From the NCBI GenBank assembly GCA_008632985.1, contig QPGO01000007.1, positions 186,001 through 250,000 of the forward strand: a DNA stretch of 64,000 nt. The letters are read 5' to 3'. A model generated the notes under the pieces. The model ran no database searches and had not been told where the DNA came from. It saw nothing but the letters and a program-made list of their open reading frames with translations. Below are positions 1 through 37,451 of the stretch, piece after piece. Each line of letters begins with the position of its first letter. The first letter of the stretch is position 1. The DNA is from Psammoneis japonica (taxonomy: Eukaryota). A program made the position numbers and the translations under genes.

Positions 1-1183
1 GCTGTCAATGTCGTAGAACACATCGTCGGACGGTTCCTCGGAGTGGACATCGTGTGCGCACATGGCACGTCAGGGAGCTCGAGGTGTCGTCTTGGGTTGA
101 AACGCACTGTTGCATTGAGCCGCTGCGGAGAGGAGCAAGCCACAGCATTGATCGCACGTGAGGCTCTTGCCACTCTGCGCATGATGCTGATCAGCTTGGT
201 TCTTGACAGCACGGAGTTCCTCGACAGGGTGTGCGGCATTCTCGAGCATGATGCGCTTCTGTCCTTCAGAGAAGTGGTCACTGGCCGGGATGAGTGCCTC
301 GTGCTTGCGCAACTGATCTTGCCAATGAAGGATGAACCCGTGGGTCAGACCTTTCCAAGCAACCATCACCAAGACGTGCGGTGGTGAGGTGCGCGAGCAA
401 GGTGGAGGACTCGACAGATGCGCGGGTGGAGGCAAGCGCACACTCAGACAAGGCGCGGCAGACGGTCTGGGCGTCAGAAGACCCCACATTTTCGCGAATG
501 AGAGCCTTGCCCTTGTCGGTGAGAAGAATGCGTTCGAAGACAGCGAACATGCACTTTTGCTGTTCAGCAAAGAGCAGTTTGTCTTCGGGGCTGGTCGGTT
601 TGTACGACGAGTCTAGAATGCACTCGACATCTTGGGCACGGGCTTGTGCCACAAGTGAGGTGTGCCAAGTGTGCCACTGCTTGTCGGATTTGAGAGCCGT
701 GAAAGCGGTGGGGTCACGCTTGATGCCTCGCTTGAAGTCTCGCACCGGGTCGCGTGCCTTGGTCGGGTTGGTGACATGCAGAGGTGCGATGGGTGAGCTG
801 CCGACGGACACAGAAGACATGCAGTCGGGGCTGAGGCGGCAGGCAAGGAACTCGTCATGCGTGAACAACGAGGAGTCATTGGCAATGTCAAGACCTTCGT
901 GTGCTTTGACAATGTACAGACTAGTTGGAGCTGCTAACATGTTCTTATAACCACGGGGCAAAGGGATCACATCAGTGCCGTTGTCGCACTCAAGCGAGTC
1001 GATTTGGGACGGTATGAACGTGAACAGTTCTTGATGCGAGTCCGTGCCGTCTTGGGTCAAAGCCAAACGAAGAGGGCTCCCAGCACCTTGGGCAAGCACA
1101 GTTCCAACAATGTGCTCGAAACCATCGGTTTGTTGCTGACGAGTGAGAACCATGGCAGACAAAAGTGGTGTCAGGACAAGCAA
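1..1183 (-). mobile_element. Ty1/copia (CoDi-like) LTR retrotransposon, gag region, frameshifted; runs off the left end of the window
   Basis: ORFs 278..1183 and 70..570 join via a frameshift into a diatom copia gag-like protein (DFKRGIKRDPTAF...WHTWH...AQARAQDV; FILHWQDQLRKHE...MLENA). Strongly TA-depleted. The 5' LTR probably lies within 1200-2350 but could not be delimited. Confidence 0.8.
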
Positions 1184-2359
1184 TTCTTGTTGGGAAGCGA
1201 AGGTAGACTTGAAACTTGGGTGAGAACAGACTTGACTTGAAGTGGACTTGACTTGAAATCTTGAACTGCCTTAAAATCAGAAGTCGCCGGGCTGTGCCAT
1301 CCCGTTCGTTGTCAAGTGCTAAACTTCCTGTCTGGTCCGTAGAGTTGTGCCGGCACGTCCAAACCCACAGCCAGTGGCGCTTTGGGTTGCTTGCAAGCGG
1401 AGCAGCGGGTTGTAAACCCCTGCAGGTGAGCTGACTAGAGGTGGACAAGACCCCCGAACCGTTCTCATTTTACATCGGTTGGATTTCCCGATCAGGCTGG
1501 CCAGTTGACGCAGGCGTCAGGCGCTGTGGACGAACGAACAAACGCGGGAAAGCACCCTTGCCCCAACGCAGGCTGCAATCACGGCTGCTTGCTCTCACAG
1601 TCGTCCTCGTGGACCTGGCAGAACTGCAGAGCACCAGCAGTCCGGGGCAGATCAGGTGCAATGGACTCGGTGTGCTTGCAGAGTGGCAGCAAAACCGCAG
1701 TCCGAAGAGTGGGTGCAAGTTCTTGGCCGTGAAGACATGCACACACACATGTCTTCAGCGACGAAGATCCTTGAACATGTGGGGTTCTTGACCGTTGACC
1801 GATGAATGGGTGTGTCAAGGGATGAGGATCAAGGATGGACTTGGATGTGACCGTTGAATGTGTGTCTTCAGCGATCAAAGGCAGTGTGATCAATCCAGAC
1901 ATCCAGCGGCAAGGAGACTTGACGGTGACGTTAACTTCCTGCCGATGCCCTGGTGTTGAATGCGCGCAGACTTGCCGATGTACGTAGAATGCACACGGAG
2001 GTCCACGCAGAATTGAGACAGCGTCGTCGGTAAATCAACGACGACGATGGCGGTTGCTCAATGGGTTGACAATGAGCAAGACTGTCAATCTGACAGAAAT
2101 TGAAGGCAAATGGCAAGAATTCAAACAATGACTCCTCACTGCTGTCTAAATGGCAGATGAGTCTCCGCTCAGAGACCGTTGCAGGAGCCGAAAGACGTGC
2201 AAGTCGGCACAATCGGGCCACTGTCATTGTTCTTGTGAGCCTTGTGGCTCGAAAGCAAACTACATCGCACACGAACGCGCGGAACTAAAGCACACAAAAC
2301 TGTGCGCGGTGAACTGAACAGCGCGCGACATTTCGCGCGCACCTGAATCCTGTTCAAAT

Positions 2360-4250
2360 CCTGTCACCACTGCCGAGTGCTTTGACATTCGTGAGCACAC
2401 CAACCTGTTGCGCACTGACAACTCCAGTGCCATGCATTGGCAATGGAAAGGATTGTCCACCACCATCAAACCAGCGCCCAAGCTTCTCCGACATCAAGCC
2501 TTTCACCAGTGCCATCATCGACACCTTGGACTCCATGATTGCTGGCCTGGACACCTCAACTCTGCCACTGATGATGCCTTGCATCTTCAATTGCCAACCA
2601 ACCAAGAATTCTCATGCCATTTTAATCTCTTTTATCTGCAGAAACTCTCTTGGTGCCTCTGGACACCACCATCTGAGCTGAGTTCATTTACGACCTCAGC
2701 GCTGCTCAGCATGCCGTCACCCACTGTGTTGCCAATTCCAGAGCCTCCACCGCCAACACCCACTGGGACAAATGGCATCAGCTCTGCACCACTGTGGCCC
2801 TCGACCCATTGCTCCAAGACATTGATGACCCTGTTGTCTTCCTGAAAGACATCCTCCTCCACCAACACCACACTGGCATCATTGCACCAAGCAGCAATCC
2901 CATCAAAGGACAAACCGCTGAGGATGCCTTGCAGTTGGTTGGCCAAACATTTGCTGCTTTTGGGGCCCCGGATCCGCGGTGCACACCCCAGGGCGGCATG
3001 GATTCCCAACTTGCCAGACAAGTCCATTGCCACAAGAAAGAGGATCCACCACCAGACCATGCAAAACCGGTCCCTGTTGCTGTCCTCACCTGGATCATGC
3101 ATGCCACTGCCAACAGCAATGATCCAGGCAATGCATTCCAGACATGCAGCAGGCGGGAATCCCTGTGACATTGGGCCCGTGGAATTCTGCGTGCAAGCTC
3201 CGTGGCAAAATTGTTCAGCAATTTAAATGTCAATGACAGCCCACAGAAAAAGAGGCAGTTTTGTGAATGCACAAACTCTTCCATGATTGAAGCACATGTT
3301 TTTGCTTGACCCAATGCACTCTTCAGACATTCAAGAATGTGTCAGGCACATCGATGTTCCCACAAACAAGTCAAATGAAACATCTGGGGTTTCGCAAAAC
3401 AGGCAGTGTGGAACAATTTTTTACAATGTGTCACGCAGACATGTGCGCGCGAAACATGCAACAGATGACAAAAAACATTGTGTCACACATCAGCACTGCA
3501 AGCTTCCACCTGGGGCTGGAACGCGTCAGGCACCCAAGCAGTCACAGACATGATTGCTGTTGCTTTCTTTTGTTTGTTGCATCCCGGTAAACACACTGCT
3601 GCACCATCCGACTCCACCCCATTCCATCTCGCCGATGTCCACCTGGCATCTGGGGGAGGTGCCCACATGGACACCCTCCAAGCCCCCGATGCTCAGCTTG
3701 ATGCTGTCACCTTCACCAATCTCTTGCTTTCACTGCCCAAAAGAGTGGCATTCATGGAGAAGTTTTGGGACTTGACCTCTCGGGACACCCTGACCTGTGC
3801 CCCACAAAGGCACTCATTTGTTGCATCCGGCATCTTCGATCCCATGGCGCACTCCCTGACACCCCCCTTGGTGTCTGTTTTCATCATGGCGCCTGGCAAC
3901 GGGTGTCTCCTGCCGACATCACAAGCGCCCTGCTTGCCGCTGTCATTGCTTGTGGCAGGCAAATCTCGACTTCAACACTCAAGATGTTGCTGCTTGGTGC
4001 CTTCATGCTGCTGGTGCCTTGGCACTCCTCTGTGCGCAAATGTTGACACCAATCTCACTCGGCTCTTGGGCCGCTGGTGATCTGATGAAATGCAGCTTGG
4101 CTTGCATTTGCAAGCCAAGCTTGTCATGCACAACTTCGCTCATGACATGCTCGCCGGTGGCAACTTTGTCCTTCATCCAAATGCCGATGTCCCGATGAAT
4201 CCACAAGATCCACAGGACTGGCTCGCCACCAGCCCTCCAGCCTTTCTCAG
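2360..4250 (+). mobile_element. Degenerate DIRS/Ngaro-like tyrosine-recombinase retrotransposon fragment (RNase H C-terminus plus YR)
   Basis: 2408..2845 reads TDNSSAMHWQWKG...LLRHQAFHQ...PGHLN..DDA (DIRS-type RNase H). 2794-4130 gives DPR.TPQG..D.QL.RQ...KKEDPPP..KPVP, DMIAVAFF.LLHPGK, DLCPTKAL, AAGALALL...LLGRW*SDEM (tyrosine recombinase), with stops and frameshifts. Confidence 0.8.
3131..3526. mobile_element. 396-bp MITE-like insertion inside the YR gene, 6-bp TSD
   Basis: TSD CAGGCA at 3125-3130 and 3527-3532. Imperfect 11-bp TIR ATGCATTCCAG / CTGGAACGCGT. Removing it restores the frame ...NSNDPG-TQAVTDMIAVAFF. Confidence 0.85.
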
Positions 4251-4259
4251 CATGTGAGT

Positions 4260-6900
4260 TGCATTGCCAACATTGTCCTCTGCCTCTGATGCACAAACTT
4301 TGCGAATGAAGCCTTCCTCATCATGCACAAATTCCAGGGAAAACAAACCTTGGAATGGTGGCCAGTGGCCAAGTCTCCAATCACAGTGCAAACGAATTTC
4401 ACTTTCAACAAACCACAAGTTGTCAAAAGCTTTTAACAAGAACTCTCAGGTCACCCAAGTGAGGCACAAAGAAATGGAACACCTGAATCAGACTCAGAAG
4501 CGGGTCGCAAAACGACTTCATGCCACCACGCCAGTGCATCATGACAACCATAAAAAATTAGCCAAGTTTCTCCAGCAGCTGCCATGGTCCCATCATTCAG
4601 CGGAATCATCAATGAATGTAACAGTGGGTTCATTGCTGGGTGAAGAGTGCTGCTTTACATCATTTGATGATTTCACCGTGGCACCAAGACACCGTCTTGA
4701 TGAACGCAACATCGTCTCTGTCAGCGGGAGACGAAAAAGCTCAAAGCACGGCAAAAACGCGTGTGGTGTCTTGACACAAGATTCGGAGAGACCAGGCCTG
4801 TGAGGACCGGCTAAATGCGCAGTGCGCATTTTTGAGTTTTTGGGTCTCATTTTGCACCAAATGCACAAAAATGCACTGTCTGCTGCATGGAAACATGCCA
4901 GAGGTTTCTGTGTGGCGTCACACCTGAACATTGCAATGCACTCGTGATGAGCTTGCAACTGCAACAGAAGTGATTGGCCCTCTGGAGCAGAGACAAGAAG
5001 TGACACAGTCACACATGAAACTCACTGTCACCTGCTCAAGCAAGTGACAGTGCTTGCTGTTCAGTCGTTCAAACATGCAGATCTCAAGAATGTCACATGG
5101 GATCTCAGTCATGGTTGTGCTGAGCTTGCGGCAGCATGCAGACAGTGCGTGCAGGGTTGGAGGGAGGCTGTGATGTCATCCATCAGTGCTGCATCTACGC
5201 AGAACACATGCAGCCAGTTTCAGCACATAAATGAGCGCAAAACCGGGTTTCAACAAGCGCATTTGGCCAATGCTTGCAGGCCTGCGGGCTGCAGGGAGCA
5301 TTGACCACTTGTCTTTCTTGGTGGGTGTGGGTGTGTGCCGTTGCATGCTGCATTGCCTGCATGCACACAGGGCCCTGCCGCTGTGGCCAGCAGATTGTGG
5401 CGGCAGAGTGGCGTGGCCACTGCACCGGTGACGTGGATGACCATCACATTTGATGTCTCACACCATTTTTGGGGCTGCAGTGAGGTGCACAGACACTCTT
5501 TTTTTCCGATTTGTTGCCACATGATGACAGAGCATCTTTGCCAGTGAGTCGCAAACACAATCATAAATGCAGGGACACAACCCAAAAGGACAAGCAAACA
5601 GACTGCCCCGCGAGTTTACGATTCTGCATGCGACCATCATTTTCAGTCGACCACAATCGTGCCGTGTTCACATTTGGCCGATGGTTGGGCAGATGTTGAG
5701 ACAACAAGCAACCACATGCACGAACACAAATGATCAACAACTGATGGCAGGACGGGCTTGTCAAACATCACATGACGCCATGGCGGCTTTGAATGCAGTG
5801 TGCGACACAAATCACAGTCCATTCAAAGACATGATGTCTGTCAACAGAGCACAATTCATGTTGCACCTGTGTTGTGAAAGTCATTCTACATCGCGAAAAC
5901 AAGCAAAGCATCATTGCATGATTTGTGCCTTGTTCTCTTCTGACCCCACAAACCCCCCACATGTCCGCTCTCCTCCCACATCTCAATGCAGTCGCATGTG
6001 AGTTCACAAGATGTGACAAAGCATTGGTTGTTGGGCCTCTGTGATGTCCTCTCATCAAGAAAGCATCAATTGTCGTTTCATCATGGTGACGCGCACTTTC
6101 CACAGGATTTCTGCATCCTTTTTGTGCCAGAAATTTGTGATTTTTGTTTGCGATTTTGGAGGTGGATTGAATCCAAGGCCTGATTTGCGATTTGTTTTCA
6201 TGAATCATAAATCCGAAAAGGGTTGCCAGTGCAAAAATCATGTTTGCGATCCACCAAAAATTGTGATTTTTTGTGAATCTCATTCGCGCCGGAAGACGAT
6301 CGGACACAGGTTTGTGCTCGTGACTCACTGGCGAAGATGCTCCAATGGCGCATCGCACAAACTCACTTGTTGTTCGACATGTTTTCCCCAATGTGACTGT
6401 TTCATGCAGAATTCACGATTGATCATCTTTGTTGACAATTGAACACATTTTTTAACATGCCACGCTGGCAATCCCAGTTTTACACAGCACTTTCAAGCTC
6501 TCCTGAAAAACAGTTCCATGTGCCCGTCATGGGGAATCCATCAATTTTTTAGGATGTCCCCATGACCTCCAATGTTCTCAATGATCATTCCAAGAATTCG
6601 AGCAATTCGTTTGCACTGAACAAGAGCCCACGCCGTTCCAAAATCCGAGGGGCACACTTTCAAATTCGGGCGGACCGACTGCCCGACCGACACGAAAAAG
6701 TCTGCAATCACCAACCACTGAGCGGCCAATGAAACTCAAATGAATGCAGGCTGGCCAGCTCGCGAGGCGACTCATGATCACAGCAAAAAATCTCCTCCAA
6801 TGAATGAATTACATTTGAACTCTGTCATCTCTTAAAAGTGGGGCACGCGACAATTGAGACGATCACATTCAATCATTGGATGTTCTGAATGTGATTTTCA
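4260..6900. repeat. Heavily degenerate, unclassified repeat/TE remnants
   Basis: TpA and CpG depleted, TG/CA rich, no credible ORF; lies between two recognisable TEs. Confidence 0.55.
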
Positions 6901-6976
6901 GAACTGGTCAATCTTTTGAGAGCTCCGTTTTAAGATCTGTCCGTGCCTCACCCACCTGGATGGTCTGGAGCGGAGG

Positions 6977-7158
6977 CGAATGAACACCGATGTAGCCGCG
7001 TGGGGCAATGACAGTGCCTTGAGCCTGAGAGCAGTGGTGATAAACCAAAGAGAACCCTGTGTCGATTAGATCGCACAAGATTGTGGGAAAGAACAAACCA
7101 CCAGATCGTGCGCGTCAGCCCCGGACCAGGGACTGACCGCTCCACTCAGATTTACTCG
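6977..7158 (-). repeat. 3' LTR (182 bp)
   Basis: Aligns without gaps to 13625-13806. Preceded on the minus strand by a short purine tract (GCGGGGAC). Confidence 0.92.
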
Positions 7159-7339
7159 GTCCCCGCGAAACGGCAGTGACAACGCCGATTCGTCTAAACC
7201 CAGAACATCCTCTCATAGAGAGGTGAACACAAAACCCAAATTCAAACCACCAGCAATGCTGGCTTGGGAGGCCGAAACACGTGGGCGCGAGCCGCAGGTG
7301 TCTGGCCTTGGTGTCGGGGCTCTGCCAAAAGATGCAAGA

Positions 7340-10300
7340 TCAAAGTTTCCAACGCCGCTCTCCCGTCGTCACCTTCGTAAACAGATCCGCCAAATTCGTG
7401 TCCGTGTCCTCCTTCCCGACGCGAACAATGCCAGCCGCAACCGCTTCACGAACCAAATGACAGTTGACAGCATTGTGCTTCTTGTGCAACACAGATTCCG
7501 GAACACTGACGTTCTTCACCACGCCGCGGTTGTCGCAAAATGCATTGGCAGGGCCTTCAATCGGTGCTCCAAACATGCGAAGTTTGTAATGCAAAGCAAC
7601 AATCAACTCCTTGCAAATGCGCATCGCAACCAATTCGCTGCCAAACGTCGCCGACTCCACTGTGTTCTGCCGCTTGCTAAACCAAATGATCGGAGCATTG
7701 TTCACGAATGTCAAAATCCCGCCATGCAATCTGCGAGCAACAACGTTTCCCGCATGGTTAGCGTCAACAAATGCAGATGTGTTTGCCGGGTTGCCACGGG
7801 GCTTGGGCATCCGTGGCGGCAACTCCTCCTCAACGTCCCCGTAAAACTCCGTCCAGTCCGCAGCAGAATTGAAAACAGATTCGTCGATCACAGGCATCTT
7901 CGGGTCAAAACCAGTGCGACCGACATTCAAATGCTTCTTCATGCACGCGAACACATGGTGCAATGCTTCAAGGTGCCCTTTCCTTGGGTTGGCTTGACAC
8001 TGAGAGAGAATGGAAACTTCATGCAAGATGTCGACACGGCCCAACTCGATCGCCCAATGACAAATGCCAATCAACTGCAAACACCTGTCCACCAAATCGG
8101 GTCCCAACTCGTCCATCATGTCTAATTCCGGCTTGCACTTAAAAGGCAGTGGGTCCCTCACATTGTTCTTCAAGACTGCTCCGTCACCGTCCTCTTCCAA
8201 CGGCCCTTCCACCGTCTTGATCGCCGACTTGATGTGCGACTTCGGCGAGCTTGCCCAAATGGTGCGCCCATCTTCGGTCTGAACCTTCTCGACGTCGGCT
8301 CCAAGGTGTGACGATGGCTCTCCTTCACTCCCAGGTTTGACAGTGAATGATTCACCTGTGCTCTCGACAACAGATTTTCCTTGATGAGAAATGATTAGAA
8401 TGTCGTCAACACAAACCAAAAGCATTTCACAATGCTCATGCCCATCGTCGCGAGTCGCCGCACAAACACAAACGTCGGGATCTGCCTTCGTTGATTCAAA
8501 ACCCATGTTCCGTAAAACCGATGCCAATGCAGACCTCCAAGAGTGTCCAGAGCTCTTCAAACCGTGCAGCGCTCGAGTCACAACTAGAACCTTGCCTTGG
8601 TGCTCTCCACATTCCCTGCCACCTTCGAACCAGATCTTCTCCGCACACGGGGCATTCAAACACGCGTTCTCCAGGTCGACAGCCGCAATGTCCACTCCAT
8701 TCAATGCTGCCAGCAGGAATCCTAACCGCACGCCATCCCTCAAAACAACACTTGAGCATGTGATCGATGATGGTGTTTCCGCAGCATGACCTCCTGCAAC
8801 AAATCTGGCCTTCCCAGTGAAATCCATCTTGACGTCGAATGCCAAATGGCACCTGATCTCCTGATGACCACGCAAAGTTGCACTCTTGCCTTCCGGACGA
8901 CTTGAGGGGTTTCAGCTTCATGTTTGCGCCATGCTACCTTGACCTTGTTCATCTCCTTGTTGGTTGCGCGAGCCCAATGGTCCGTCCCCGTTTCCTGGTC
9001 AATCTTCAAAGCATCTTCCGTAGACTTGGGTAAACGCACGCCGAACTTGTGGGCAGTGCGCCAACATTTCTTCTTAACCTTCGAGATGATGCGATTCTGC
9101 TTGCATAAAACATGCGTGACCCACCAAGCAAACGCCGGTTCTTCGGTTAACCTGTTCGCTGCAGCACACTCAGCAAGTTCAATTGGGTTAGACTCCTTCA
9201 GATCCTTGAGTTTCACCCATGACGAGCTGCCGTCCTTCCATGCGACCAACAGGTTCCATCCTTTCGTAGTTGTCTTCTTATGTTCGTTCCCGTCAGCTGT
9301 CTGAACTGTTCCCTCCTGGATCGGCATGGCTTCGCCGGTCTTTTCGTGATCCTGCATCTCCTGTAAAATAGAACACTGGTTGCCTTCGCTGTCAACTTGA
9401 GCAAACATGTTCTCCGCGATCACATTGGCAGTGTGCTTGTCTCTGGTGCCGTCTGTGTGTTCAATCTCACACTCGCGGGTGTCAAACAATGGATTCTGAT
9501 GCCGGGTTCCAATTGGTCGCCCATCCTGACCTCGTGCCCGCTTGACTGCGACTCCTCGCCGTTCAGCGTTGGTCCCAACATCAAACACAAGTTCCATTCC
9601 GAGATGTTGATCAATTGCCTGTTCGTCGTCGTCCTCGGGTCGTTCTCCTGGCAATGACATGTCCCCGCATTCCTCATTGGTTGGTGTCACACCGCCTTCA
9701 TGTTCCACGCCGGGGTTGCCGTCGATCGCCAAATCATCCAATGCAAATGCTGGTGCCGCTTCGTCGCCTTGTAAAACGAAATTGGTGTCATCTAACCGTG
9801 CCTCCAGTTGTTCGTTAAACTTGTCGACTTTCACACGAATGTCCGGCTGCACCATGTCGGCCTGCGTTACATGCTCGACCGAAGTCTTCGAAACTGTCTT
9901 CCCGGATTCCGTGACAATCCAATGACACATGTCCGATCCGACCTTGTGAGATGCACCAAGCCATCGTCCAAGCCTCCTGGGTCATCTGTTACATTCAGCT
10001 TGTCGTGTCCATCCCACCACCAGACCAGATCACAGAAACCGAAGTCCAAATGCTCGCCTGTCTCGGGTGTCTGACCAGTTACCTCTTCACACCCAGTCCG
10101 TTTGTCGCGGCCTCTTGCCATGCGAGACACAAGTTCCGATTCATAAACTAGACCAAAATCCCACAATCATTTCGGCACCTTCTTCCTCGTAATCCGCAGG
10201 CGCCAACGCTTGGCCAAGAACCCGATCTCTCTTTCTGCTGCGTGATTCTGATTCTTACGACCTTGTTCCGTTGTCCTGAGTTGGATCCTCATTCGACGTG

Positions 10301-11642
10301 CGTGTTTCACAAACTCGGCACTTCGTCCTGTGAACTCTCCAGCACCATCCGACATGAGACACTCCGGCACTCCCACATCGTCTGTAAAGTCAACGAGAGA
10401 CAAACCTGCCTCCGACCTTGCGGTCATTGGCACAACCTTTACGAACTTGCCCTGAGCACAAACATTGGCACAAGTGTTGCCGAGCAAAGACTTCACCTTG
10501 GACATTGATGTGTCCACAAACCATGTCCCTTTTGATCTTTTCCGATGCAGGTCCAAGTGATCCACCCTGACTCTCCTTGACATTGGTTGGGTCGCCGTCC
10601 GCACACCGCGCTGTGCAGTTACATTGAGAGTGTCCTCAGCCGTTTCCAAGCCGACGTTCCACTTTCGTGCTAGCTCCTCAGCGTCGATCTTGGAGTGACG
10701 GTCCTCACTGCGTAATTCCTTGACCGCTCTTGCTCTTTCGTCTGCGTCAGACCCACACGCGCAAGCTGCGTTGACTGAACTGATGAGCCTGTCACAAAAG
10801 GATTGAAGATGACAGACTGGAGACAATCGAGTGAGTTCAGCTTCAACCTCGCCCCATTGGACTGCTTGAGACTTGGCCCTGTCGCTCTTCATTTCTGAAA
10901 CCTGTTCCTGTCTCATGCCAGATGTCATCGAACGGATGGCACGCATCTCAGATTGCTCCCTTGTGCGCTGTGGTAAACCCATGTCGACTTCCATTGGACT
11001 CCATGCGTCTCCTGTTGGCAGTGTCACTGGCAAGTTCTTCTCCTCCCAATCCGTCGGAACACGAGACTTGAAAGACACAATTGTCCCCGTGGAATTGAAA
11101 GGTGTGAAAGCTTCATCAGCTTCGACTCCAAACCCATTTCGAGTGTCGCAAGGGTTGTCGTGTACGGGCACATCACACGCTCGCAACTGATTGGGGTTCA
11201 ACAATGAATGATGCATGTCAGTTCCAAACCACAGCATTTGGTCTCCAACCAGCAAGCACTCTCGAGTCGTTTCCGGATCCGTCCACACTGTGCAACAATG
11301 CGCCACAGGAATCTGTTTAACCGGCTCATGCGAATCTAGAAACGGGTGCACTTCACAGACTTTGTTCGTCAATTCCACAAGTTTCCAGTTAGCGCCAGCA
11401 CAACAAGTGTCCGCATGAGTGTCACATTCGTTCCTCGCCATGAAGCCGGGTGTCGTTAAGTTCGTCATCGCGGTGGCAGTCGTTGACCTTGTCACACGTT
11501 TCGAAGTCACAGCAACGCGCCTTTTCGTCACCTTCTCTTGCAAATGAAACATTGGGTGGGGTTTAGTTAACAACATGATGAGCAACATGAATGCAAATGA
11601 CATGTGCACCAAATGCGCCAACGCTCCCGTAGCTGAAACCAC
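7340..11642 (-). pseudogene. copia pol (protease, integrase, RT, RNase H), broken into three ORFs
   Basis: 10167..11642: protease DTHADT and integrase (WFVDT...SDGAGEF...QNHAAERE). 8740..9930: GWNLLVAWKDGSSSW IN tail. 7340..8875: KARFVAGGH, ALHGLKSSG, LVCVDDIL, FVDANHAG, SKRQNTVESATFGSE, NLADLFTK. Confidence 0.95.
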
Positions 11643-11651
11643 CCCGATCAG

Positions 11652-13175
11652 TCAGACATGACCTTGACAGGCTCCTCGACCGAAAGCGCGCCCATTCCTG
11701 CCACCACGATCACGGTCAGCTCCGCGACCGCGGCCACCGTTTTCACCTTGCGCTTGACCTTGCTGCCCTTGACCTTGACGGTCTTGAACCTGAGCTTCGG
11801 CTGCTTGCCTGTTGCCTCCGTCGCGTCCGCCTCTTCCTGCAGGGTTTCCTCGACCACCGCGTCCGTGCATCCTTTCACAAGCTTGAAAAATGTGATTGAG
11901 ACCTCCGTTAAAGCACAATCTGTCCCATTCCTGGTCGGCAAATGTCCTCGTAGGATCCGATGCATCGACTCCGTTAATCACAGTTGTGCGATCACCGCCC
12001 CTTCCTTGATGTCCTCCGCGTCCTCCACCGCGGCCAAATCCACTGCCACGCCCATGACCGCCGTGATGGAAACCTCGGCCACCGCCGCCACCTCGGCTGA
12101 TCTGAGAAATCTTGCGCTTCGTGTGACACCGGGCTTCTAACTGAGCACCTGCATGTAAATGAGAGACTTCGGATGAGAAACAAGCACACGCCCCCGCGAA
12201 GTCACGAGGGTGCTGGTTGCCAACAATGGCCGTAGCCACCACAAGACGGGCATCCTCCGATTTGATGCCCTTCTGCAATGTTTCAACCTTCTGCCGAGCA
12301 GACATGCTTTCATCTGGAACCTCATCCAAAGCAGCAAAGGCACTGGTGAGTCTCTCCGTGAATTTCTCAAATGCAAGTGCACCTTCCTTTTTGTAGAATG
12401 ACGTTTCGACATTGGCCCCAGCCAAATGAACTCGCTTGCTCAATTCGCCTTCGCCATTGCAATGGTTGGCCCAGGCCCAGAATGCTTCGCGTCCATTCTC
12501 TGTTGCGTCACATGGTTCAATCCAAGCCCAACCAGCCGCATCAATCAAGTGCTCCTTCAATGTGCGATGCACGCGACGATTGTCCACATCAAACGCGTCT
12601 CCGGCGAGCGGCAACTGACACATGCGCTCCTCCTGATTGTCCGCGAACTCCGCCGGTGCAGGCATCCTCCTCGCGACACATTTCAACGGCTCCTTAAGTG
12701 CACCAAGCTTCTGCGCCAACAAGTTCAAGAAAGCGTCTTCACACACGTCAAAATCTTCCGCTTTGAATTTGGTGAGGCTGTCAACCGTCGCAGTGGATTC
12801 CGCAAACTCCTTTTCAATGCGCCTGCCGTCCCCAGCCGCCGCCATGGCTGCAATGTTAAAATTCGCCGCGACCAGTGGCTGGCTCCGTTTCGTTAAATCT
12901 CTCAACCACCAAACCAACGCCTGCAAGTTCTTAATCTGTGTCGTCCCCAGCGTCACGCGTCCATCGGCTGCTGTACGACGAGCCGCCCTTTGGGCTAGAT
13001 CCTCAACATCATGGTCCGTTTCCACAACAGCAACATTCTCAAGAGCAGCAAACCCTTCATAGAAAACAAGCCTCGCCCTGGCGTTCTGGTCAACAACACC
13101 ACAAACCTGCAATGCCGCGTCTGCGTCAGCCGCCGCGGCCAAAGCCGCAAGCGCCACTGCTGGTGCCGCTGCCAT
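11652..13175 (-). pseudogene. copia gag with RGG-rich C-terminus
   Basis: ORF from MAAAPA (ATG 13175) with diatom copia gag motifs (IKNLQALVWW; NGREAFWAW..HCNGEGE) and a long G/R-rich tail. No CCHC knuckle seen. Confidence 0.85.
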
Positions 13176-13610
13176 CCTGTGACAAGAGAAACAGAGGCAA
13201 CAACCCGCACAATGGGTCGCAATTTGGTGTGAGTGCGACATGGCACAGGAGGCCACACCGACCGGTGCTGTGACAATGGGTTCACATGGCCAACCGACTT
13301 CGGGGTGATCAATCCCGTGTCGTTTCCATCGCGAGCACACGCTCGGGCATGCCACCCAATGCCGCAGTCGCTCCACACCCGTTAACAACATGGAGATGGT
13401 GACCATTTTGCGAGCATTTTCCATTGCAAGCTGTTTCCTTTGGTCGTCATACGCAATGCAGAGCACACGCTGCACGCGACAACCCCCTTTCGACGCTGCG
13501 CGTACGAATCAGTGCATTTTCTACAGCTGCTCGTTCCATGCACACAATCACAACAATCAACCGTTTGCAACGAGTTGTTTCCTTGTCCGTTTCATTCAGC
13601 TTTTCATCAA

Positions 13611-13623
13611 TGGCTCTGATAAA
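13611..13623 (-). promoter_or_regulatory. Primer-binding site resembling tRNA-iMet complement
   Basis: Minus strand TTTATCAGAGCCA just inside the 5' LTR, versus the canonical copia PBS TGGTATCAGAGC(C). Confidence 0.65.
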
Positions 13624-13624
13624 G

Positions 13625-13806
13625 CGAATAAATACCGATGTAGCCGCGTGGGGTAATGACAGTACCTTAAGCCTAAGAGTAGTAGTGATAAACCAAAGAG
13701 AACCCCATGTCGATTAGATCGTATAAGATTGTGGGAAAGAACAAACCACCAGATCGTGCGCGTCAGCCCCGGACCAGGGACTGACCGCTCCACTCAGATT
13801 TACTCG
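13625..13806 (-). repeat. 5' LTR (182 bp)
   Basis: Direct repeat of 6977-7158; retains 14 TpA sites. Confidence 0.92.
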
Positions 13807-13908
13807 GAGGAATGCACCATTGGCAAATGCGATGTGCATGCGCGCAACCCCGACCCGCCCCACACGCCGCTCCGTTCCAAACCTCGTCCGCCGGCCGCAT
13901 TCCCCACA

Positions 13909-15294
13909 ATGTCGGCAACGCCCAAAAAGAAGGCATCGTCACTTCAAGCACTACTGGATGCTCAAGAGGAGCGAAGAGGCCGTGCCAGTAGCGGCAGAGG
14001 CGTGTTGTGGAGAAGAAGCACAAGATCCAGCCAACAGCAACGACAACAACATGATATTCGACAGGATCAGCAGCGTACATTCAATTCAAAAACAACAAGT
14101 CCACCCACAAGAAACTCTCGGTGGATAGAGGAGCGCAAGAGTAGCAGGACGACCAGACGAAATAATCATAAACCTGGAAACGAGGGTCCATCGTACGAGG
14201 AACGCATGGCAAAGATTGAACGGGATGCAATTGTGCAAGCAGAGCGAGATGATAATTACAATCATGATGATGACATTTCAACGTGGGTTGAACCTCTAAT
14301 TGACGGCAAGTGTCGATACTATCAAGATCGGGATAAGAGATATCCATTCTACACCAAAGAGCGGGGGTCAGAGCTGCTGCAGCTACTCATGGATGCCAAT
14401 AAGGCTCTTCTTTTGCTGAATCAGGAACAAATCGACGAAGAGGCGGTTGCGTTCAGCAAAAACAAGAAAAAGAATGTTTCTGCTCAAGTGATTGTTGGGA
14501 TCGGTCAAGGCCTTTACGCTGAGAAACCAACATTACGAACCAAGGGTGTCACGTGGTCGACCGAGGAATACAGTCATCCCGGTCTTCAGCGCATGTACCT
14601 GCGAATGAAATCCATACAACGCTTTACCGAAATATGGGCGCTGCTGGAACGATCGGCACACATTGGTGTCTTTGACGACATCTTGGAGCAAGGCACGGGT
14701 ACAATACGAATCGCAGCTATTGGTGGTGGTCCGGGCTATGAGCTTCTCGCAAGCAAATTGTTTTTTCAAGAACGAGCGCCGAACGTGGAATTGGAATTGA
14801 TTTCCATGGATCTGTGTGCTGCCTGGAAGCCATATACGGAGCTGCTTGGCTTTCGCTTTATCCAGTACGACATCAACAATGAGGGTACCGACCCATTGGA
14901 GGCAGCGGGATTATCACGGGGAGATTTGCATTTTTGTATCGTGAGTTGTGTCATGATTTACGTGACCAACGACCAAACGTTGGATATGTTTTACAAACTT
15001 GTACACGAGGATGGAGTTCAGGCGATATTGTTGAGTGAACGAGGTGAAAAGACAAGGGCTTGTAAAATGATGCAAGATCGAGGTGGCGCCGTCATTCGAC
15101 TCATTGATCAGACGTACGGCCTGGATGAGCGACAAGCAGTCCTGTGCTCAGATGAATTTAGAAAAGCACATTTGAGGACGCCTGATGCTCTTCGTGAGAA
15201 GGACTTCAATCCTACCTTTCCAAACGTGCCGTATGAAGAGCATAAGCATGAGCGGGCTGGGTACTACGGTACATCTAATAGGTTTCATAGATAG
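13909..15294 (+). CDS. Putative class I SAM-dependent methyltransferase-fold protein with basic low-complexity N-terminus
   Basis: Long intact ORF with normal Tyr use. Motif I-like IAAIGGGPGYE, acidic end of beta2 (ISMDL), YDI, FCIVSCVMIYV. Confidence 0.7.
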   Translation: MSATPKKKASSLQALLDAQEERRGRASSGRGVLWRRSTRSSQQQRQQHDIRQDQQRTFNSKTTSPPTRNSRWIEERKSSRTTRRNNHKPGNEGPSYEERMAKIERDAIVQAERDDNYNHDDDISTWVEPLIDGKCRYYQDRDKRYPFYTKERGSELLQLLMDANKALLLLNQEQIDEEAVAFSKNKKKNVSAQVIVGIGQGLYAEKPTLRTKGVTWSTEEYSHPGLQRMYLRMKSIQRFTEIWALLERSAHIGVFDDILEQGTGTIRIAAIGGGPGYELLASKLFFQERAPNVELELISMDLCAAWKPYTELLGFRFIQYDINNEGTDPLEAAGLSRGDLHFCIVSCVMIYVTNDQTLDMFYKLVHEDGVQAILLSERGEKTRACKMMQDRGGAVIRLIDQTYGLDERQAVLCSDEFRKAHLRTPDALREKDFNPTFPNVPYEEHKHERAGYYGTSNRFHR

Positions 15295-18329: not shown

Positions 18330-21150
18330 CAATTGATTTCACCATTGTTCTCCCTCTACATTGTGCTTTTGTGCACAGGATGCTTGGCAAACCAAGTGAT
18401 TGAGATGGCTGCAGGAGGCAACTGGGTCAGAATGAGAATGAACCACATGACAACATGCAGGGGGATGCCACAAAAAGAGCAAAACCCATGACGTAAGAAC
18501 AGCACATGACCCATGTTTCATTTGACAAGACATTTGTTCCACTTGTTTGTCATGCACAACCATTGATGGCGGGAATGTCATTGTTGGTCATGAACTCAAA
18601 TTGTCCAAGAGCAGCTTTTCCAGTGCCAAATCTTTGTCCAAGCCAAAGAGTCCTTCAAGAGCAACTTGTCCAAGTTCAAAATCATCCAAATCAAAGTCTT
18701 GGATGCTGAACATGAAAGACAGTTGTGCTGATTGAGAGACATTTGCTCCACTTGTGCTTGTTGCACGTGGCTGCAAACTCTGTGCATGTGAAACAGCACC
18801 CGCTGCACACCAGCCATGGTCAAAATGTTTGAAAACATGGAGCAATTCTGACATGACAAAATGCTGCATTTTTCTTTGCAGCAGTTGCCAACTTTGTGCA
18901 TTTGTTTGACCATGAAATGTTGGTGTTGAGAGGCCCCAGTGGCCGAGGGTCTCTGGGTTTGTTCAAAGTCAATCCACCAAATTCAGACTTGAGCAAAAAA
19001 TGCACTGAGGTTGGCTGGGCCAAGTTTGACAAATTGGAACAAGAGCAAGGATTGGATGATGCAGCATGAAAGTGTGCTTTAGCATTTGGTGTTGCAGGCT
19101 TGTGCTTTGGAAGACTTGTGTTTGTTCTCGTCTTTTTTGAAGCAGTGTGCTGCTCCATTGCTCTGCAGCAAAAACTTGGTGAGTTTGTCGTCAACCATGT
19201 GCAGCATGCATGCAGACAAAAGGTTGTTTTTGTCACGCCCTTTGTGACATTTAAAGGCTGCAACACGGCACCGTGATGCATTGACTCTCATTGGCAGCTG
19301 TGCGTTGCACTCCTCCCCATGTGTCACGCGTCCATGTGGCTCTTTGCTAACGTGTGCTGACACTGCACGGTTTTGGCGGAACAGTGTGGGTGCGCACGAA
19401 GGAACGTGCAGAACTGCACAGAGTTTTACGCGTTCGACAGTGATCAACGTTGCTGCAGACAACTCCCACTCAGGGTTTCGAACCCCTGGCCTCCTGCCCA
19501 GTGGTTGCGATGTGCCACTCCGCTGTGAATTCACAATGCAGCATGCATGCAGACAAAAGGTCATTTTTGTCATGCCCTTTGTGACGTTTGAGACGGGCCG
19601 TCGTCTTGTTTTTTTTGCACGTCTTTTCTGGGTTTTTACGCGTTTTTGACAGGTCGCGACAGAAAACAACACGACAAAAGCACGAGTGACAATGACGATG
19701 TTCGCGACGAGCGGTGAGTTGCAAAGCATCACCTCACGAGGGATGCTCATTGGTTTTGTTGTCGTCACACAGCTCAGATTGATTTGCATGCTTTCGTCCC
19801 TCGTTGCCACTGGGCCAATTTTGAGAGATGGCGCAATTGCCATCATCGTCGTGCTTCGATCGCGGTGCCTGATGTTCTCGTTTTCGTTGGCGATCGAACA
19901 ATTCTTGCATTTAAAATTGACAATGACGAAATAATGGCATTCAAACACATTGCCAATTTCAGGACAAACGCGGAAAAAATGGGTCGGCGGTCCCCCTCAA
20001 AGGCTGCAACACGTCGCCGTGATGCATTGACTCTCATTGGCAGCTGCGTGTTGCACATGATCCAAGTTTTCCCAGCCCTGCAGTCTGTGTGGCATGGATG
20101 GGACAAGTGCGCAGTGTCACAAACTCTTCTTGTGGCTGAGAGGGACATCCTTTGGTTGTCTGCAGGGTGCTTCAATCAGTGCATGTGCTGTGACCGTTGC
20201 AGACACTGCAAGAACAGAACAAGGCACACACAGAGAGAGTGCGCACAACAAGGCTCAAGAGTGAGAAAAGCACAAGGAGCTGGAGAGCAGCAAGCCATGG
20301 ATTGTGAAAAAGAGCTTCAGTGAAGAGAAGGAAGAGTGGATGGAGAGAGGTGCACAATGTGCTCTTGAGCAACAAGCCCTCCCCGGGCCAGATCACTGGC
20401 GGGGGTGTGCGCGAGGAGAGAACAGAGCCAGCATGCTTTGCAAGACTTGGCTCTTGGAGCCACAATCTTGCTGGTGAAGGAAAGTGCCCAGTTGTCATGC
20501 ACAATGTGTTTTCCACCAATGCTGAATTTTGCTCTCATCATGACAAGTGAGACAATGGCTGAGCAGGCAAAGCTCAAGAAGAGTCATTTGGTGCCCACCT
20601 GAGGTGGGCGCTTTTTGCAATTGAGGGAAACAAACAATTTCCATGTTTCCACAAGTCAACCAGCCAATGCTTTTTTGTGGTCTTTGTCATTGTCAGTGCC
20701 TCCACAGTTTGTTCAATCCTCTTCTTTCAGCGCACAAATGCTCACCAGCTTGTGTGCACCTGGCGGGTGGGCACTCGGGCGCAGTCGGCGGTGGGCCAGC
20801 TCTGCATGTGCAAAGCTCAATGAAGCTGGATTCTTCCTGCCAAAGAAGAAGGAGGGTTACGGAGACTTGCAGTCTCAGCTTGAGATGGACAACTCTCCAA
20901 AAGATGCAAGTTGCTCGAATGGCTGCTGCGTGGTGGCCTGCGCTGCTGTGAGAGCTTGGACCACATCATTGTGCCTCTCCACAGAAGTGTGATGACAAGG
21001 AATTTCACTTCTCCAAATCACCACATGGGCCATCATCACTTTTAGAGTGTCACCCTCAGAGCAAACGAAATGAAAGATGTCTTTTCTTGAGTGATCGTGC
21101 TTGCTGCGATGAGCCACTGGTTGTTTGTCAGGGCTCTGCGCACACGCACT
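18330..21150. repeat. Degenerate unclassified repeat/TE block with internal duplications
   Basis: TpA-depleted. ~50-bp segments duplicated at 19200/19538 and 19254/20000. No credible ORF. Confidence 0.6.
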
Positions 21151-22949: not shown

Positions 22950-23990
22950 CTTTGAGATGGCTCCTAGGAAATGGGTAAGCCACAGCAGTCAATGCGTCAC
23001 ACATGCTGATTGCCAATGGTCAACTAATCCACTCCCTTGTCATCCAGGCAATTGCACCATCCCTTGAAAAAACAAAAAAGTTCTGCATCGCATCTTCACC
23101 GCAGGAAATGTCTTGAGTGAATGCTGAAAGTCATTCAAGGCATTTCCTCACTTGTCATCATGGAGTTTGCCAAATTGTGAGGAACACAACACCAGGGTTT
23201 GTGACAGCATCCAAGTTCTTGATGCAGGATTGAGAGCTCTTCTTTGAGAGGCAGTGCTCTGTTTGAGATCTGCAATCTTGCTGCAGCAGAGCCAACACGG
23301 CAATGTGGACCTGTGCACTGTTGCAGCTGGAACATGTCAAAGTTGCCCCAAAGGCAATGGCATCTGCCATGATGTTGCAGCTCAATGAAGCAATGGTGTG
23401 GCATGAAAGCAACTTCTTTGTTTTCTCTGCGTTTCATGTGCGAAAACGTTGTGAGAGATTCCAAGAGATTTTTTTCTGGCGTGTGACAGATTTGAGCCAT
23501 GTTGCATGTCACCCCCAATGACTGTTCAGAGCTGTCAATGTGTCAATTGTCAATGCACAGATGTGGACACATCACTTGTCAGCCCTTGGTGTGTGGGGCA
23601 CTCTCACAAGAGCCCCACCGTCACCACCCCTGCACACGAGCTCTCACAAGTTATGTCATGATGATCCGACGACCATGTGATCATGATGCACTGCTTGACA
23701 GCAGATCATTGCTCACATTCATGCATGCTAATTTGTGTGCAGCAAATGCATTGATTGCACAAGCAACTTGCGTGCCGGAACACTGTGATGTCATGGCAAA
23801 AAAGGTCAGGGCCTCTCTCTCCTTTTTTGTTGCTGGCTGACATGATGCCCAGCACTCCAGCAGTCTTCTGAGCATGTTGCGACTCTGATGAAGTGCCACT
23901 GAGACAAGTGAGAAACAGACAAAGAGAATGATTACAGAACGGGAACAAACAGGTTCTAAATGCAATTGTGAGAGTGTCATTCTAACACCT
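22950..23990. repeat. Degenerate TpA/CpG-depleted repeat remnant
   Basis: Composition shifts abruptly between guaD and BiP; no credible ORF. Confidence 0.55.
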
Positions 23991-30433: not shown

Positions 30434-31382
30434 GTGCAGACGCGCCACGTGGAATTTGGTGCGAAGTGTCGTGCGTTCACGTGCGCAGAAGGATGTGGAT
30501 CGCCAACGGCTGGAATGAAGCAGCACACCACACAGCAGCGAGTGCAGCTCTGTCATCACGGCGCTAGAATGGCGGAGGACAACATCGTTGCGTCTGGCAA
30601 AGCAGAGGATGCAGCAGCTCCGGAAGTCATGGCAGAACTCACGGGCGCCAAAGGCACGGCGGCAGCTGCCATGACTGCACTTGGCACCGAGGGAAGTGCC
30701 GAGGGTGTGTCCGTCGAGTCCGAACGCGCAAGGATGTTGGAGAAGCCGGCGCAGTCGCAAACTGAAAAGAGTGAGAAAGCCGTGCCGCCGGAGCCAACCT
30801 TTCAAATTTGTGGTTGGAATGAAGCACAGCAGCTGGGTTGCACCGCCGAGCAGCTCCTCAAGGCCGGTTGCAAGATCAAGTTGGTGGGTGATCAGGCCAC
30901 CTTTGTGAAACCGGAGGTCCCACCTTTTTGCAGCGGCAAAAGCGAGGAGGCAGCCAAGCCCGCGGCCAAAGTGGTCGCGAAAGCAACGGCGGAAGAGGAA
31001 GAAGAAGGAAAGCAATTTCCGGACCCCAACGATCCGTCATTCGACTGGGGAATGGGTGTTGCGGCACGAAAAATCCGATGAATTCCAGGAGTCCATGTGC
31101 CTGATGAAGGATGCGCCGAATGATCCCGACCTCTGGTTCCCCGTGCTGGGAGAACTGGGGTGCATCAGGAGCGACCCTGAAGCCGTCGCGAATGCTCACG
31201 GCGAACACTGCAAGTGGGTGTGGAGGTGCCACACGGAAGTCGGCGAGAGGGGCATCCCAGACTCGATGCCAAAGAGCAACAAAGTGTTCAAGACCACCGT
31301 CGAGGCTTTCGAAGCGGGGTGGTCGCTCGCACTGGTCTGTCTCGTGAAGAGAGCAAGCACAGAAGTGTGCACATTTGGATGA
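30434..31382 (+). pseudogene. Degenerate unknown ORF(s), possibly the N-terminal part of the SET gene
   Basis: Overlapping ORFs 30434..31081 and 31056..31382 with coding-like A/E/K-rich content, directly upstream of the SET ORF. Confidence 0.45.
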
Positions 31383-31405
31383 GGCGCCGTGTCACTTAAC
31401 CTGCG

Positions 31406-32026: not shown

Positions 32027-32248
32027 TGTGCTCTGTAAATTAGCAGCACAGTGTGTTGGTGTTTTTCAGCGAAACTGCAGCATTAGTTGGAAAGGCGTAG
32101 CCCCAGTTGTGGTTCGAAAAATGGGAACGAGGAAGAACAGAAAGTCGGTAAATTTACACAAATCCAGTGAATTAGCAGGCACCTGCACAGTCGCCTGAGT
32201 GCAGAAAGTCAGCAAATTTACGCAAATTTAGCAAGTTATTTTGTGCTG

Positions 32249-37385: not shown

Positions 37386-37451
37386 AAAACAACTGTTTTT
37401 GCTGAGCAACTTCTTGAAATTTGTCGAGTTAAAGTGTCAGCTTAAATTAAA

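Follow-up and report, generated by a model that had tools for sequence, protein, structure and literature searches.

The subject of this report is a Copia-type retrotransposon of the diatom Psammoneis japonica whose two long terminal repeats (LTRs) have fared differently: the dinucleotide TpA (TA) is kept in one and largely replaced by TpG or CpA in the other, and a like loss of TA pervades the element body and further blocks of repeat DNA around it. The element lies in a stretch of 64,000 nucleotides, hereafter the window (NCBI GenBank assembly GCA_008632985.1, contig QPGO01000007.1, positions 186,001 to 250,000 of the forward strand), and all coordinates below are those of the window.

Structure of the locus

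In the region singled out by the initial annotation, a repeat search returned a single direct-repeat pair at 6976-7159 and 13624-13807, with 184 nt per copy and 93% identity; the pair itself was thus recovered, and the size formerly given for it (182 bp, with outer limits 6977-13806) is replaced by 184 nt and limits of 6976-13807. Four long open reading frames (ORFs) lie between the LTRs, all on the minus strand, and Pfam recognises RVT_2, the Copia-type reverse transcriptase (RT) domain, in the ORF at 7343-8911 (minus strand). The element and its immediate neighbour are as follows (o/e, observed/expected ratio).

6976..7159, minus strand: 3' LTR, hypermutated, 4 TA left (repeat search, alignment)
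7160..13400, minus strand: Copia internal region, TpA o/e about 0.2 (Pfam RVT_2, tblastn of the related polyprotein P0124, translation)
7325-8911, minus strand: RT/RNase H
8878-9978, minus strand: polyprotein middle part
9936-11591, minus strand: protease-integrase
11655-13508, minus strand: gag-like ORF
13401..13623, minus strand: 5'-terminal part of the internal region; TA is present again, with the susceptible ATA/TAT among it (TA and ATA/TAT positions)
13611-13623, minus strand: stretch resembling a primer-binding site, abutting the 5' LTR
13624..13807, minus strand: 5' LTR, spared, 14 TA including susceptible contexts; the start codon of the host gene is 101 bp away
13909..15294, plus strand: host gene next to the spared LTR; TpA normal, tyrosine (Tyr) 3.9%

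The annotated assignment of the right copy as 5' LTR and of the left as 3' LTR was confirmed, since the RVT_2 ORF is on the minus strand and the stretch resembling a primer-binding site abuts the right LTR; this stretch is similar to the initiator-tRNA type used by Copia elements. P0124, a full-length polyprotein of 1404 amino acids from a related element and a cluster mate of the best homologue, aligns to 7325-11591 in three pieces with 57-70% identity (tblastn). The family is present in multiple copies, the summed contig depth being 450-1300 over the element versus 62 in flanking host DNA, and self-comparison of the window revealed no second transposon paralogue pair besides the LTRs.

Differences between the two LTRs

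Alignment and a base-by-base list both gave 12 differences between the LTRs, the number reported before, and all 12 are transitions, with neither transversions nor indels. Ten of them are TA in the 5' (right) LTR and either TG (5) or CA (5) in the 3' (left) LTR, and the remaining two are adjacent and form one doublet, TG in the right LTR and CA in the left, which agrees with the earlier description in every respect. The doublet lies at 13706-13707 in the 5' LTR and at 7058-7059 in the 3' LTR; if it descends from a TA flanked as A-TA-G, the 5' LTR, spared at all other sites, would have taken one hit, in the most susceptible class. The 5' LTR now holds 14 TA and the 3' LTR 4, so that the latter has lost 10-11 of 14-15 TA sites, and 0 of its 156 bases outside TA have changed. 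The roughly 12 shared CpGs were likewise rightly called intact (CG count 12 in each LTR, 0/12 changed).

Bases within TA make up 28 of the 184 positions of the LTR, and the probability that 10 of 12 random substitutions would be TA-destroying transitions is below 1e-10. In all 10 polarisable differences the TA is in the same LTR (two-sided binomial 0.002). Since the 3' LTR lost TA without any other change, the process must have acted after insertion, or at least after LTR synthesis, and it far outpaces background mutation; the pair gives a lower bound on the excess of the mutation rate.

Blocks poor in TpA and their limits

Along the window TpA o/e is 0.02-0.3 in five blocks (1 to about 13400, 18500-21040, 23030-23930, 27880-43930 and 52760-55190) and 0.5-0.8 elsewhere. 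Apart from the Copia element, the blocks contain the following.

1..6975, no strand: older TpA-poor repeat block abutting the 3' LTR, TA o/e 0.05-0.2, CpG low at 3000-6000
18500..21040, no strand: TpA- and CpG-poor block, TA 0.05, CG 0.54
23030..23930, no strand: short block poor in TpA and CpG, flanked by the guanine deaminase and BiP/Hsp70 genes, TA 0.05, CG 0.27
27880..43930, no strand: 16-kb TpA-poor block with a Helitron
37446-39890, plus strand: Helitron Rep ORF
40804-43098, plus strand: Helitron PIF1 helicase ORF
52760..55190, no strand: block poor in TpA and CpG, flanked by two host tandem paralogues, TA 0.07, CG 0.46

Dinucleotide ratios were pooled over 35,004 bp of repeat blocks and 28,746 bp of host DNA. 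The claim that five transposon blocks are TpA-poor amid normal host DNA was borne out, TA o/e being 0.14 in the former and 0.60 in the latter, with normal Tyr in host ORFs: Tyr makes up 2.0-3.9% of eight host ORFs and 0-1.0% of eight repeat-block ORFs. Two dinucleotides rise together with the fall of TA, namely TG (1.57 versus 1.15 in host DNA) and CA (1.53 versus 1.20); CG is 0.73 versus 1.00 and GC 1.15 versus 0.96, and the repeat-block values of the other eleven dinucleotides are within 0.87-1.08 of the host value. TA is the sole falling class tied to the process, with AC and GT unchanged and AT and AA barely shifted. The GC content is 51.4% in repeat blocks and 46.4% in host DNA.

The edges of the blocks are sharp to about 100 bp. 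The depleted domain is continuous from the start of the window through the 3' LTR into the element body and ends between 13059 and 13449, leaving the final 175-560 bp of the body and the entire 5' LTR normal; the 5' LTR retains susceptible contexts and is thus truly unmutated. Pfam was run on 64 of the 80 stop-to-stop ORFs of at least 120 amino acids in the repeat blocks, the other 16 overlapping longer listed ORFs, and among these 64 it recognised the Copia RT and the Helitron alone. No protein family was recognised by Pfam in block 1..6975, and we infer that the remaining blocks are mobile DNA too. The summed contig depth at 6000-6933 is 1120-4488 versus 62 in unique DNA; the portion 18500-19223 is depleted yet at single-copy depth today.

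Because the loss of TA removes TAA and TAG, long open frames are commoner in repeat DNA. In repeat blocks TAA occurs at 3.4 and TAG at 2.2 per kb, the host densities being 9.6 and 9.0, while TGA stays at 21 in both; ORFs of at least 120 amino acids number 2.16 per kb versus 1.14 per kb, with open frames on both strands.

Host paralogues provide an internal control. The pairs 48055-49029/45080-46021 and 55446-56759/50935-52246 differ by 118 and 218 substitutions. Transversions account for 48% and 47% of these, and TA<>TG/CA changes for 15% and 11%. The loss is thus not shared equally by genes and other host DNA of the window, where TpA o/e is 0.60 and paralogue spectra are ordinary, as had been maintained; host paralogues of 74-82% identity are untouched by it. 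These tandem paralogues (44970-52484 and 55446-57301, 74-82% identity over 1-1.4 kb) have normal TpA and flank the TpA-poor insert at 52760-55190.

Direction of the changes

An LTR pair alone cannot polarise itself, and therefore protein conservation was used. When the RT ORF was compared with 60 Copia homologues, the 13 columns that are at least 80% Tyr read 2 Tyr, 7 cysteine (Cys) and 4 histidine (His) in the window copy, which keeps 233 of 260 other columns conserved at the same level. Over 1399 residues aligned with P0124, 44 Tyr became 3 Tyr, 17 Cys, 11 His, 6 phenylalanine and 7 other residues, and every non-Tyr residue type is kept at 43-91%. The catalytic RT motif YVDD reads CVDD in the translated window copy. 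In the same alignment, codons at which valine was replaced by alanine are GCA in 6 of 6 cases, those at which isoleucine was replaced by threonine are ACA in 5 of 6, and those at which threonine was replaced by alanine are preceded by T in 8 of 11. The Helitron Rep ORF, set against 19 homologues, has lost all 4 conserved Tyr (to 2 Cys, 1 His and 1 arginine) and keeps 187 of 229 other conserved residues.

Another LTR copy, set in a flank of its own with normal TA, is present in a contig of sequencing run X2; over 13624-13702, which includes 8 of the 12 variable sites, it departs from the 5' LTR by 2 letters, so that at least 6 of those sites are in the TA state. Judged from codons and copies, the changes run from TA to TG/CA. 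The A:T to G:C direction stated in the initial annotation thus agrees with the replacement of Tyr by Cys and His in two transposon classes and with the TA state of this other LTR copy. The reverse polarity, in which the elements were originally free of TA and the 5' LTR gained it by C>T changes at CpA/TpG as in fungal repeat-induced point mutation (RIP), would suit an LTR pair that is not polarisable alone and a fungal process that makes TpA from CpA. It is nevertheless hardly conceivable here, as conserved Tyr positions read Cys or His, codon evidence that refutes it, and as functional relatives have 3-4% Tyr and TA o/e of 0.53-0.92, with another LTR copy sharing the TA state.

It could also be asked whether selection or composition produced the pattern, through avoidance of UpA in RNA, GC-biased gene conversion or a foreign origin of the elements. 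A mild under-representation of TpA is general, and host DNA itself stands at 0.60. The catalytic residues are destroyed (CVDD), though, the loss goes four-fold beyond the host level with edges within about 100 bp, and AT and AA are barely changed, against general conversion of A:T to G:C pairs; the probability that we give to this explanation is close to nil.

Sequence context

Susceptibility was estimated from the survival of TA sites in the repeat blocks, by tetranucleotide, in comparison with 77 normal Copia loci and with host DNA. Survival relative to the normal Copia loci was as follows.

ATAT: 0 (none left; host density 3.1 per kb)
ATAC: 0.024
ATAG: 0.038
ATAA: 0.081
GTAC: 0.094
CTAC: 0.23
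GTAA: 0.30
CTAA: 0.39
CTAG: 0.44
TTAA: 0.46

All ten classes are fitted by a multiplicative half-site model with factors of about 0.08 for ATA, 0.31 for GTA, 0.66 for CTA and 0.68 for TTA, which gives the hierarchy ATA >> GTA > CTA = TTA. Consistent with this, the trinucleotides ATA/TAT occur 36 times in about 35 kb of repeat DNA versus about 700 times in 29 kb of host DNA. Among the products, gains of ACAA and ACAG exceed those of ATGA and ATGG, and gains of CTGC exceed those of CCAC. With regard to the Cys:His split, a T-A-Y model expects 17.8 Cys and the alternative 10.2, the observed number being 17 (log-likelihood -20.1 versus -25.7). The product counts and this split moderately favour a change of A>G in 5'-T-A-Y, which is equivalent to T>C in 5'-R-T-A. 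The three TpA-poor metagenomic loci described below show a like tendency, with TAT accounting for 16% of the contexts versus 31% in normal loci.

The signal is strictly confined to TA, which answers the question about AA to AG changes raised in the initial annotation: AA and AG are unchanged between repeat and host DNA (AA o/e 1.20 versus 1.10, AG 0.96 versus 0.93). Among the columns conserved in the 60 Copia homologues, lysine is kept in 14 of 14 and asparagine in 12 of 13. One of the candidate mechanisms put forward at first, WA to WG synthesis by DNA polymerase eta, therefore has to be dropped, AA being not depleted, AG not enriched and lysine kept throughout.

Strand, timing and substrate

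At former Tyr codons the sense strand shows 17 A>G and 11 T>C changes (binomial p 0.34), and over 66 polarised sites a runs test gave 35 runs versus 32.1 expected (z 0.78). Among the polarised sites no strand-coordinated, kataegis-like clusters were found. Strand symmetry, as previously proposed, therefore holds, the two kinds of change following each other in random order.

In comparison with the window copy, the family copies show 44 A>G, 36 T>C, 51 C>T and 51 G>A differences, that is, 182 transitions versus 10 transversions. Differing letters were itemised for 40 of 203 rows, and contig pieces for 15 of about 2,500; those 40 rows resolve into 31 events, comprising 8 TG<>CA doublets, 14 CG<>TG/CA singles, 3 TA singles and 6 of other kinds, a GC>AT doublet among them. 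The TG<>CA doublets are independent conversions of one ancestral TA in separate copies, since with CpG near 1.0 in Copia, CpG ancestry is too scarce for that many doublets. By our own arithmetic, doublets and TA singles are expected at about 2:1 if each copy independently lost about 90% of its TA, which matches the observation.

Helitrons have no RNA or cDNA stage. As both strands are hit without clustering and the Helitron is affected as well, neither editing of RNA or cDNA nor a processive single-strand burst accounts for the changes, and the data speak for chromosomal DNA having been hit repeatedly, on either strand. Pre-integration editing of retrotransposon RNA or cDNA by an ADAR-like or other deaminase deserves mention because, reasoning from the retroviral scheme, minus-strand cDNA edited after plus-strand strong-stop transfer could mutate the 3' LTR alone. 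It predicts LTRs that are identical at insertion, and the LTRs differ; the strands are about equal (17 versus 11 changes at Tyr positions, 5 versus 6 in the LTR), the Helitron and the unclassified blocks are equally depleted, copies show independent TG and CA outcomes at the same site, and the depleted domain extends into the older block left of the element. We thus consider such editing very improbable.

Evidence from other data

Contigs of run X1, assembled from 31-letter words, reproduce the sequence. One of 329 nt, at depth 70, matches 6695-7023 with 0 other letters and covers 5 of the 12 variable sites (6982, 6985, 7006, 7016 and 7021), and another, at depth 62, matches 13757-19223 with 1 other letter; the variable sites of the 5' LTR at 13706-13724 are under no contig among those listed. 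No RNA run is among those listed as containing the stretch.

A scan of metagenome contigs with the Copia alignment yielded 80 loci, 77 with TA o/e of 0.53-0.92 and 3 with 0.25-0.30. The three low-TA loci (L003, L060 and L065) share 67-70% DNA identity with the window copy and 77-91% with each other. Compared with P0124 they keep 3 of 33 Tyr, with 10 changed to Cys and 13 to His, while the other 77 loci keep 70% of Tyr on average. They also show 7-13 TG/CA doublets per 690 nt, and their depletion stops abruptly at the end of the pol ORF, TA o/e being 0.10-0.18 within the match versus 0.33-0.65 in the rest, with a 3' terminal part near normal in TpA. Proteins with less than 1% Tyr also turned up in databases, numbering 1 among 120 Copia homologues, 2 among 28 Helitron homologues and 4 among 150 representatives of clusters at 50% identity; these Tyr-less homologues have raised Cys and His, and the next-lowest Tyr is about 2.4%, so that the distribution is bimodal.

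An artefact of sequencing or assembly, in which a modified base is misread, A being called G at TA and C being called T at CG, would explain why the losses of TpA and of CpG both end in TG/CA, and the only run holding the stretch belongs to the same sample set. It is highly improbable all the same, because the run X1 contigs reproduce the sequence at depth 62-70, the same signature occurs in metagenome contigs of other projects and in proteins from other public assemblies, and copies show independent TG and CA outcomes, unlike a deterministic miscall. The refutation that the initial annotation had envisaged, an assembly artefact, thus finds no support in the run X1 contigs, the metagenome loci or the database proteins.

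A second, slower decay at CpG

The statement that CpG is intact is valid for the Copia element (o/e about 1.0) and fails for several other blocks (0.1-0.5). CpG and TpA are both low at 3000-6000, 18500-21040, 23030-23930, 27880-30000 and 52760-55190, with CpG o/e of 0.1-0.5, while Copia and the Helitron retain CpG near 0.8-1.0, and CG<>TG/CA differences are common among copies. The doubly depleted blocks are probably older, methylated repeats that have undergone two kinds of decay, and their CpG loss is ordinary CpG decay, which would imply cytosine methylation of repeats. Deamination of 5-methylcytosine at CpG likewise gives TpG/CpA, and here it is a second decay process, far slower than that at TA (0/12 LTR CpGs changed). 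It is unable to remove TpA, and CpG decay was rejected as the cause of the TA loss, since none of the 12 LTR CpGs changed and CpG o/e is about 1.0 in Copia.

Proposed mechanism

The initial annotation had supposed a strand-symmetric, TA-specific A:T to G:C mutator confined to transposon DNA and opposite to RIP, and every test run agrees with it. We consider it likely that the host directs a TA to TG/CA process at integrated mobile DNA, most likely by adenine deamination. A host process would convert A:T to G:C at TpA on either strand until TA is nearly gone, acting on chromosomal DNA after insertion and within sharply bounded, transposon-derived domains, with 5'-T-A-Y as its preferred trinucleotide (TAT > TAC >> TAR, equivalent to T>C in R-T-A). 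Chemically, adenine in DNA would be deaminated to hypoxanthine and copied as G at the next replication, by an enzyme directed by whatever marks silenced mobile DNA. The outcome is irreversible inactivation, with Tyr replaced by Cys or His, including that of YVDD, loss of TAA and TAG stops, and a rise in GC content of about 5 points. The enzyme would be kept out of the active promoter region of the neighbouring gene at 13909-15294, and this exclusion, putatively through promoter chromatin, would be the reason why the 5' LTR was spared. The pattern, its polarity and strand symmetry, its timing after integration, the context hierarchy, the domain limits and the recurrence in other data rest on observation, whereas the deaminase, the signal that directs it and the protection by the promoter are the proposed parts.

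Several points weigh against this proposal. Targeting based on identity should hit both LTRs, and a spared 5' LTR needs either promoter protection or recombination with an unmutated copy; as for the latter, 3 of 5 flanking bases agree and no convincing target-site duplication was found, so that the element may be a recombinant. The preference for a 3' T is unlike that known for TadA on tRNA, of ADARs (3' G) and of fungal ADAT-based mRNA editing (UAG), and the enzyme may be of another kind. The baseline for context survival consists of Copia loci of other organisms. Run X1 is possibly from the same sample as the assembly, its library type being unrecorded. Finally, sequence alone does not separate deamination of A from a lesion on the paired T.

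This last point bears on a variant in which the process is the same and no adenine deaminase is involved, the change arising instead from a lesion on thymine, such as an oxidised or otherwise modified T at TpA that mispairs with G, or from an error of a repair or replication polymerase at TA in silenced chromatin. T>C in R-T-A and A>G in T-A-Y describe one and the same change, the 3' T preference is unlike that of known nucleic-acid adenine deaminases, and the damaged base is not identified by sequence. On the other side, a modified thymine of the 5-hydroxymethyluracil kind pairs with A and is a weak mutagen, while hypoxanthine pairs directly with C, and the WA>WG route of polymerase eta is excluded (AA and AG unchanged; lysine 14/14). 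We thus regard a thymine or repair route as unlikely, and adenine deamination is retained as the preferred chemistry.

Relation to known systems

The closest parallel has been reported recently from mutation-accumulation lines of the chlorarachniophyte Bigelowiella natans, in which 231 of 302 nuclear mutations fell in integrated giant-virus and virophage regions (Mettrop et al., bioRxiv 10.64898/2026.01.13.699255). According to the main text of this preprint, those mutations are A>G/T>C, all on TpA, and arise in some lines only at about 6e-7 per site per generation, a de novo rate about 1000-fold over background; clusters poor in TpA and rich in CpA and TpG occur elsewhere in that genome, and low-TpA genes are enriched for reverse-transcriptase and DDE domains. 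It proposes a RIP-like defence with an ADAT2-type deaminase, and notes that ADARs favour a 5' U (10.64898/2026.01.13.699255).

As far as the main text of the preprint describes it, the likeness is in near-exclusive A>G/T>C changes at TpA, in the products TpG and CpA, and in confinement to integrated foreign DNA. The changes in the window are almost only A:T>G:C transitions, restricted to TpA and confined to mobile DNA, and thus belong to the same type. There are also differences: B. natans is a chlorarachniophyte (Rhizaria) and P. japonica a diatom (stramenopile); the evidence is direct in the mutation-accumulation lines and historical here; and the targets described there are a single-copy giant-virus insert and a virophage with Rho(TpA) of at least 0.45, while here LTR retrotransposons, a Helitron and other repeats are near exhaustion (0.02-0.2). 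The main text of the preprint contains nothing on flanking context, LTR pairs, domain edges or diatoms, and full-text searches, which returned this preprint as the one direct precedent, found no description of such TpA hypermutation in diatoms. The earlier view that the phenomenon was apparently undescribed therefore stands for diatoms and falls in general, since the preprint reports it. Given the 2026 preprint, the finding is not categorically new; it extends the phenomenon to a second, distant lineage and to two transposon classes. What is new here is the context hierarchy, the sharp domain limits, the spared 5' LTR beside a host gene, and a signature scattered in public environmental data.

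Fungal RIP is likewise a burst of dinucleotide-biased transitions at the DNA level that strikes both strands, ruins mobile DNA and leaves sharply bounded blocks of odd composition. While RIP changes C:G to T:A, mainly at CpA, and raises TpA and AT content, the process here changes A:T to G:C, lowers TpA and raises GC content; RIP was thus rejected as the explanation, its polarity being opposite and TpA being depleted four-fold. RIP is triggered by duplication (long copies of more than about 80% identity) at a premeiotic stage and involves an enzyme of the RID/DNMT4 type. As regards duplication, the Copia family here is multi-copy, but host paralogues of 74-82% identity are spared and the depleted portion 18500-19223 is now at single-copy depth, so that targeting of repeats in the RIP sense, as the initial annotation has it, is no more than possible. 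DNMT4, related to RID, has been reported from many diatoms (Hoguin et al. 2023, PMC9998398), and such relatives would not explain A>G.

The deaminases APOBEC (G>A on cDNA) and ADAR (A>G on double-stranded RNA) offer another likeness, inactivation of retroelements by editing, with the difference that they act before integration, on one strand and on retroelements only, while here both strands are hit after integration and a DNA transposon is affected too. TadA/ADAT2-3 and the TadA-derived base editors share the conversion of adenosine to inosine and a T/U immediately 5' of the target A, and differ in the 3' preference, which is T > C >> G, A here. We know of no natural role of TadA/ADAT2-3 in genome defence. 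Deaminase-SAM-Tudor proteins restricted to stramenopiles have been described (Iyer et al. 2011, PMC3239186) and are listed here as candidates only, alongside paralogues of ADAT2/ADAT3.

It is tentatively suggested, as a possibility somewhat short of an even chance, that diatoms and chlorarachniophytes, and perhaps much of the stramenopile-alveolate-Rhizaria (SAR) assemblage, share an old guided defence, a DNA adenine base editor of T-A-Y preference that is aimed by small RNA or chromatin and kept out of active promoters. If true, its A>G would be the mirror image of RIP and APOBEC and would explain Tyr-less 'orphan' ORFs in protists and metagenomes. A targeted A:T>G:C mutator would supply the counterpart that the C>T defences (RIP, APOBEC) have lacked, and should its effector prove to be a DNA adenine deaminase, nature would have its own version of the adenine base editors made in the laboratory. 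The exhaustion seen in retrotransposons and in a Helitron indicates that the process is not peculiar to one lineage or to viral inserts, and it respects boundaries of about 100 bp beside a host gene. The trinucleotide signature (ATA >> GTA > YTA) supplies a yardstick for candidate enzymes, and diatoms offer CRISPR knockouts, methylomes and chromatin maps, while B. natans is hard to manipulate. In practical terms, the long frames in TA-depleted repeats can mislead gene predictors and are the likely origin of Tyr-less database proteins, and LTR divergence is unusable as a clock in such genomes.

Neighbouring genes and other repeats

Host genes in the window are long uninterrupted ORFs. The gene at 13909-15294 has 55 homologues, and the 6 with an NCBI organism name are all from Thalassiosirales diatoms with 46-66% identity (Thalassiosira profunda, T. 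exigua, Thalassiosira sp., Discostella, Cyclostephanos and Stephanodiscus), the next named match being a haptophyte; this supports the diatom of the initial annotation. Two TpA-poor blocks enclose an intronless, full-length guanine deaminase gene (Amidohydro_1) at 21374-22690 (plus strand), which may be of bacterial ancestry, as the Atlas clusters closest to it are bacterial. Guanine deaminase acts on the free base, and no link to the mutator was seen. For the neighbouring BiP-type Hsp70 the nearest Atlas clusters are eukaryotic.

No tRNA genes or Rfam families were found in the window. The portion 19076-19542 is an extremely abundant dispersed repeat, with a summed contig depth of 78,416 versus 62 in unique DNA, and at about 19465-19490 a stretch resembling a tRNA T-arm is visible by eye, although ARAGORN calls no tRNA; the repeat may be a tRNA-derived short interspersed element (SINE), itself TA-depleted. 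Within the 16-kb Helitron block, 32024-32401 was considered as an unmutated TA island and rejected, since all of its contexts but one TTAT are resistant. A tandem array at 36733-37306, with a period of 129/248 bp, 2-4 copies and 76-91% matches, shortly precedes the Helitron Rep ORF.

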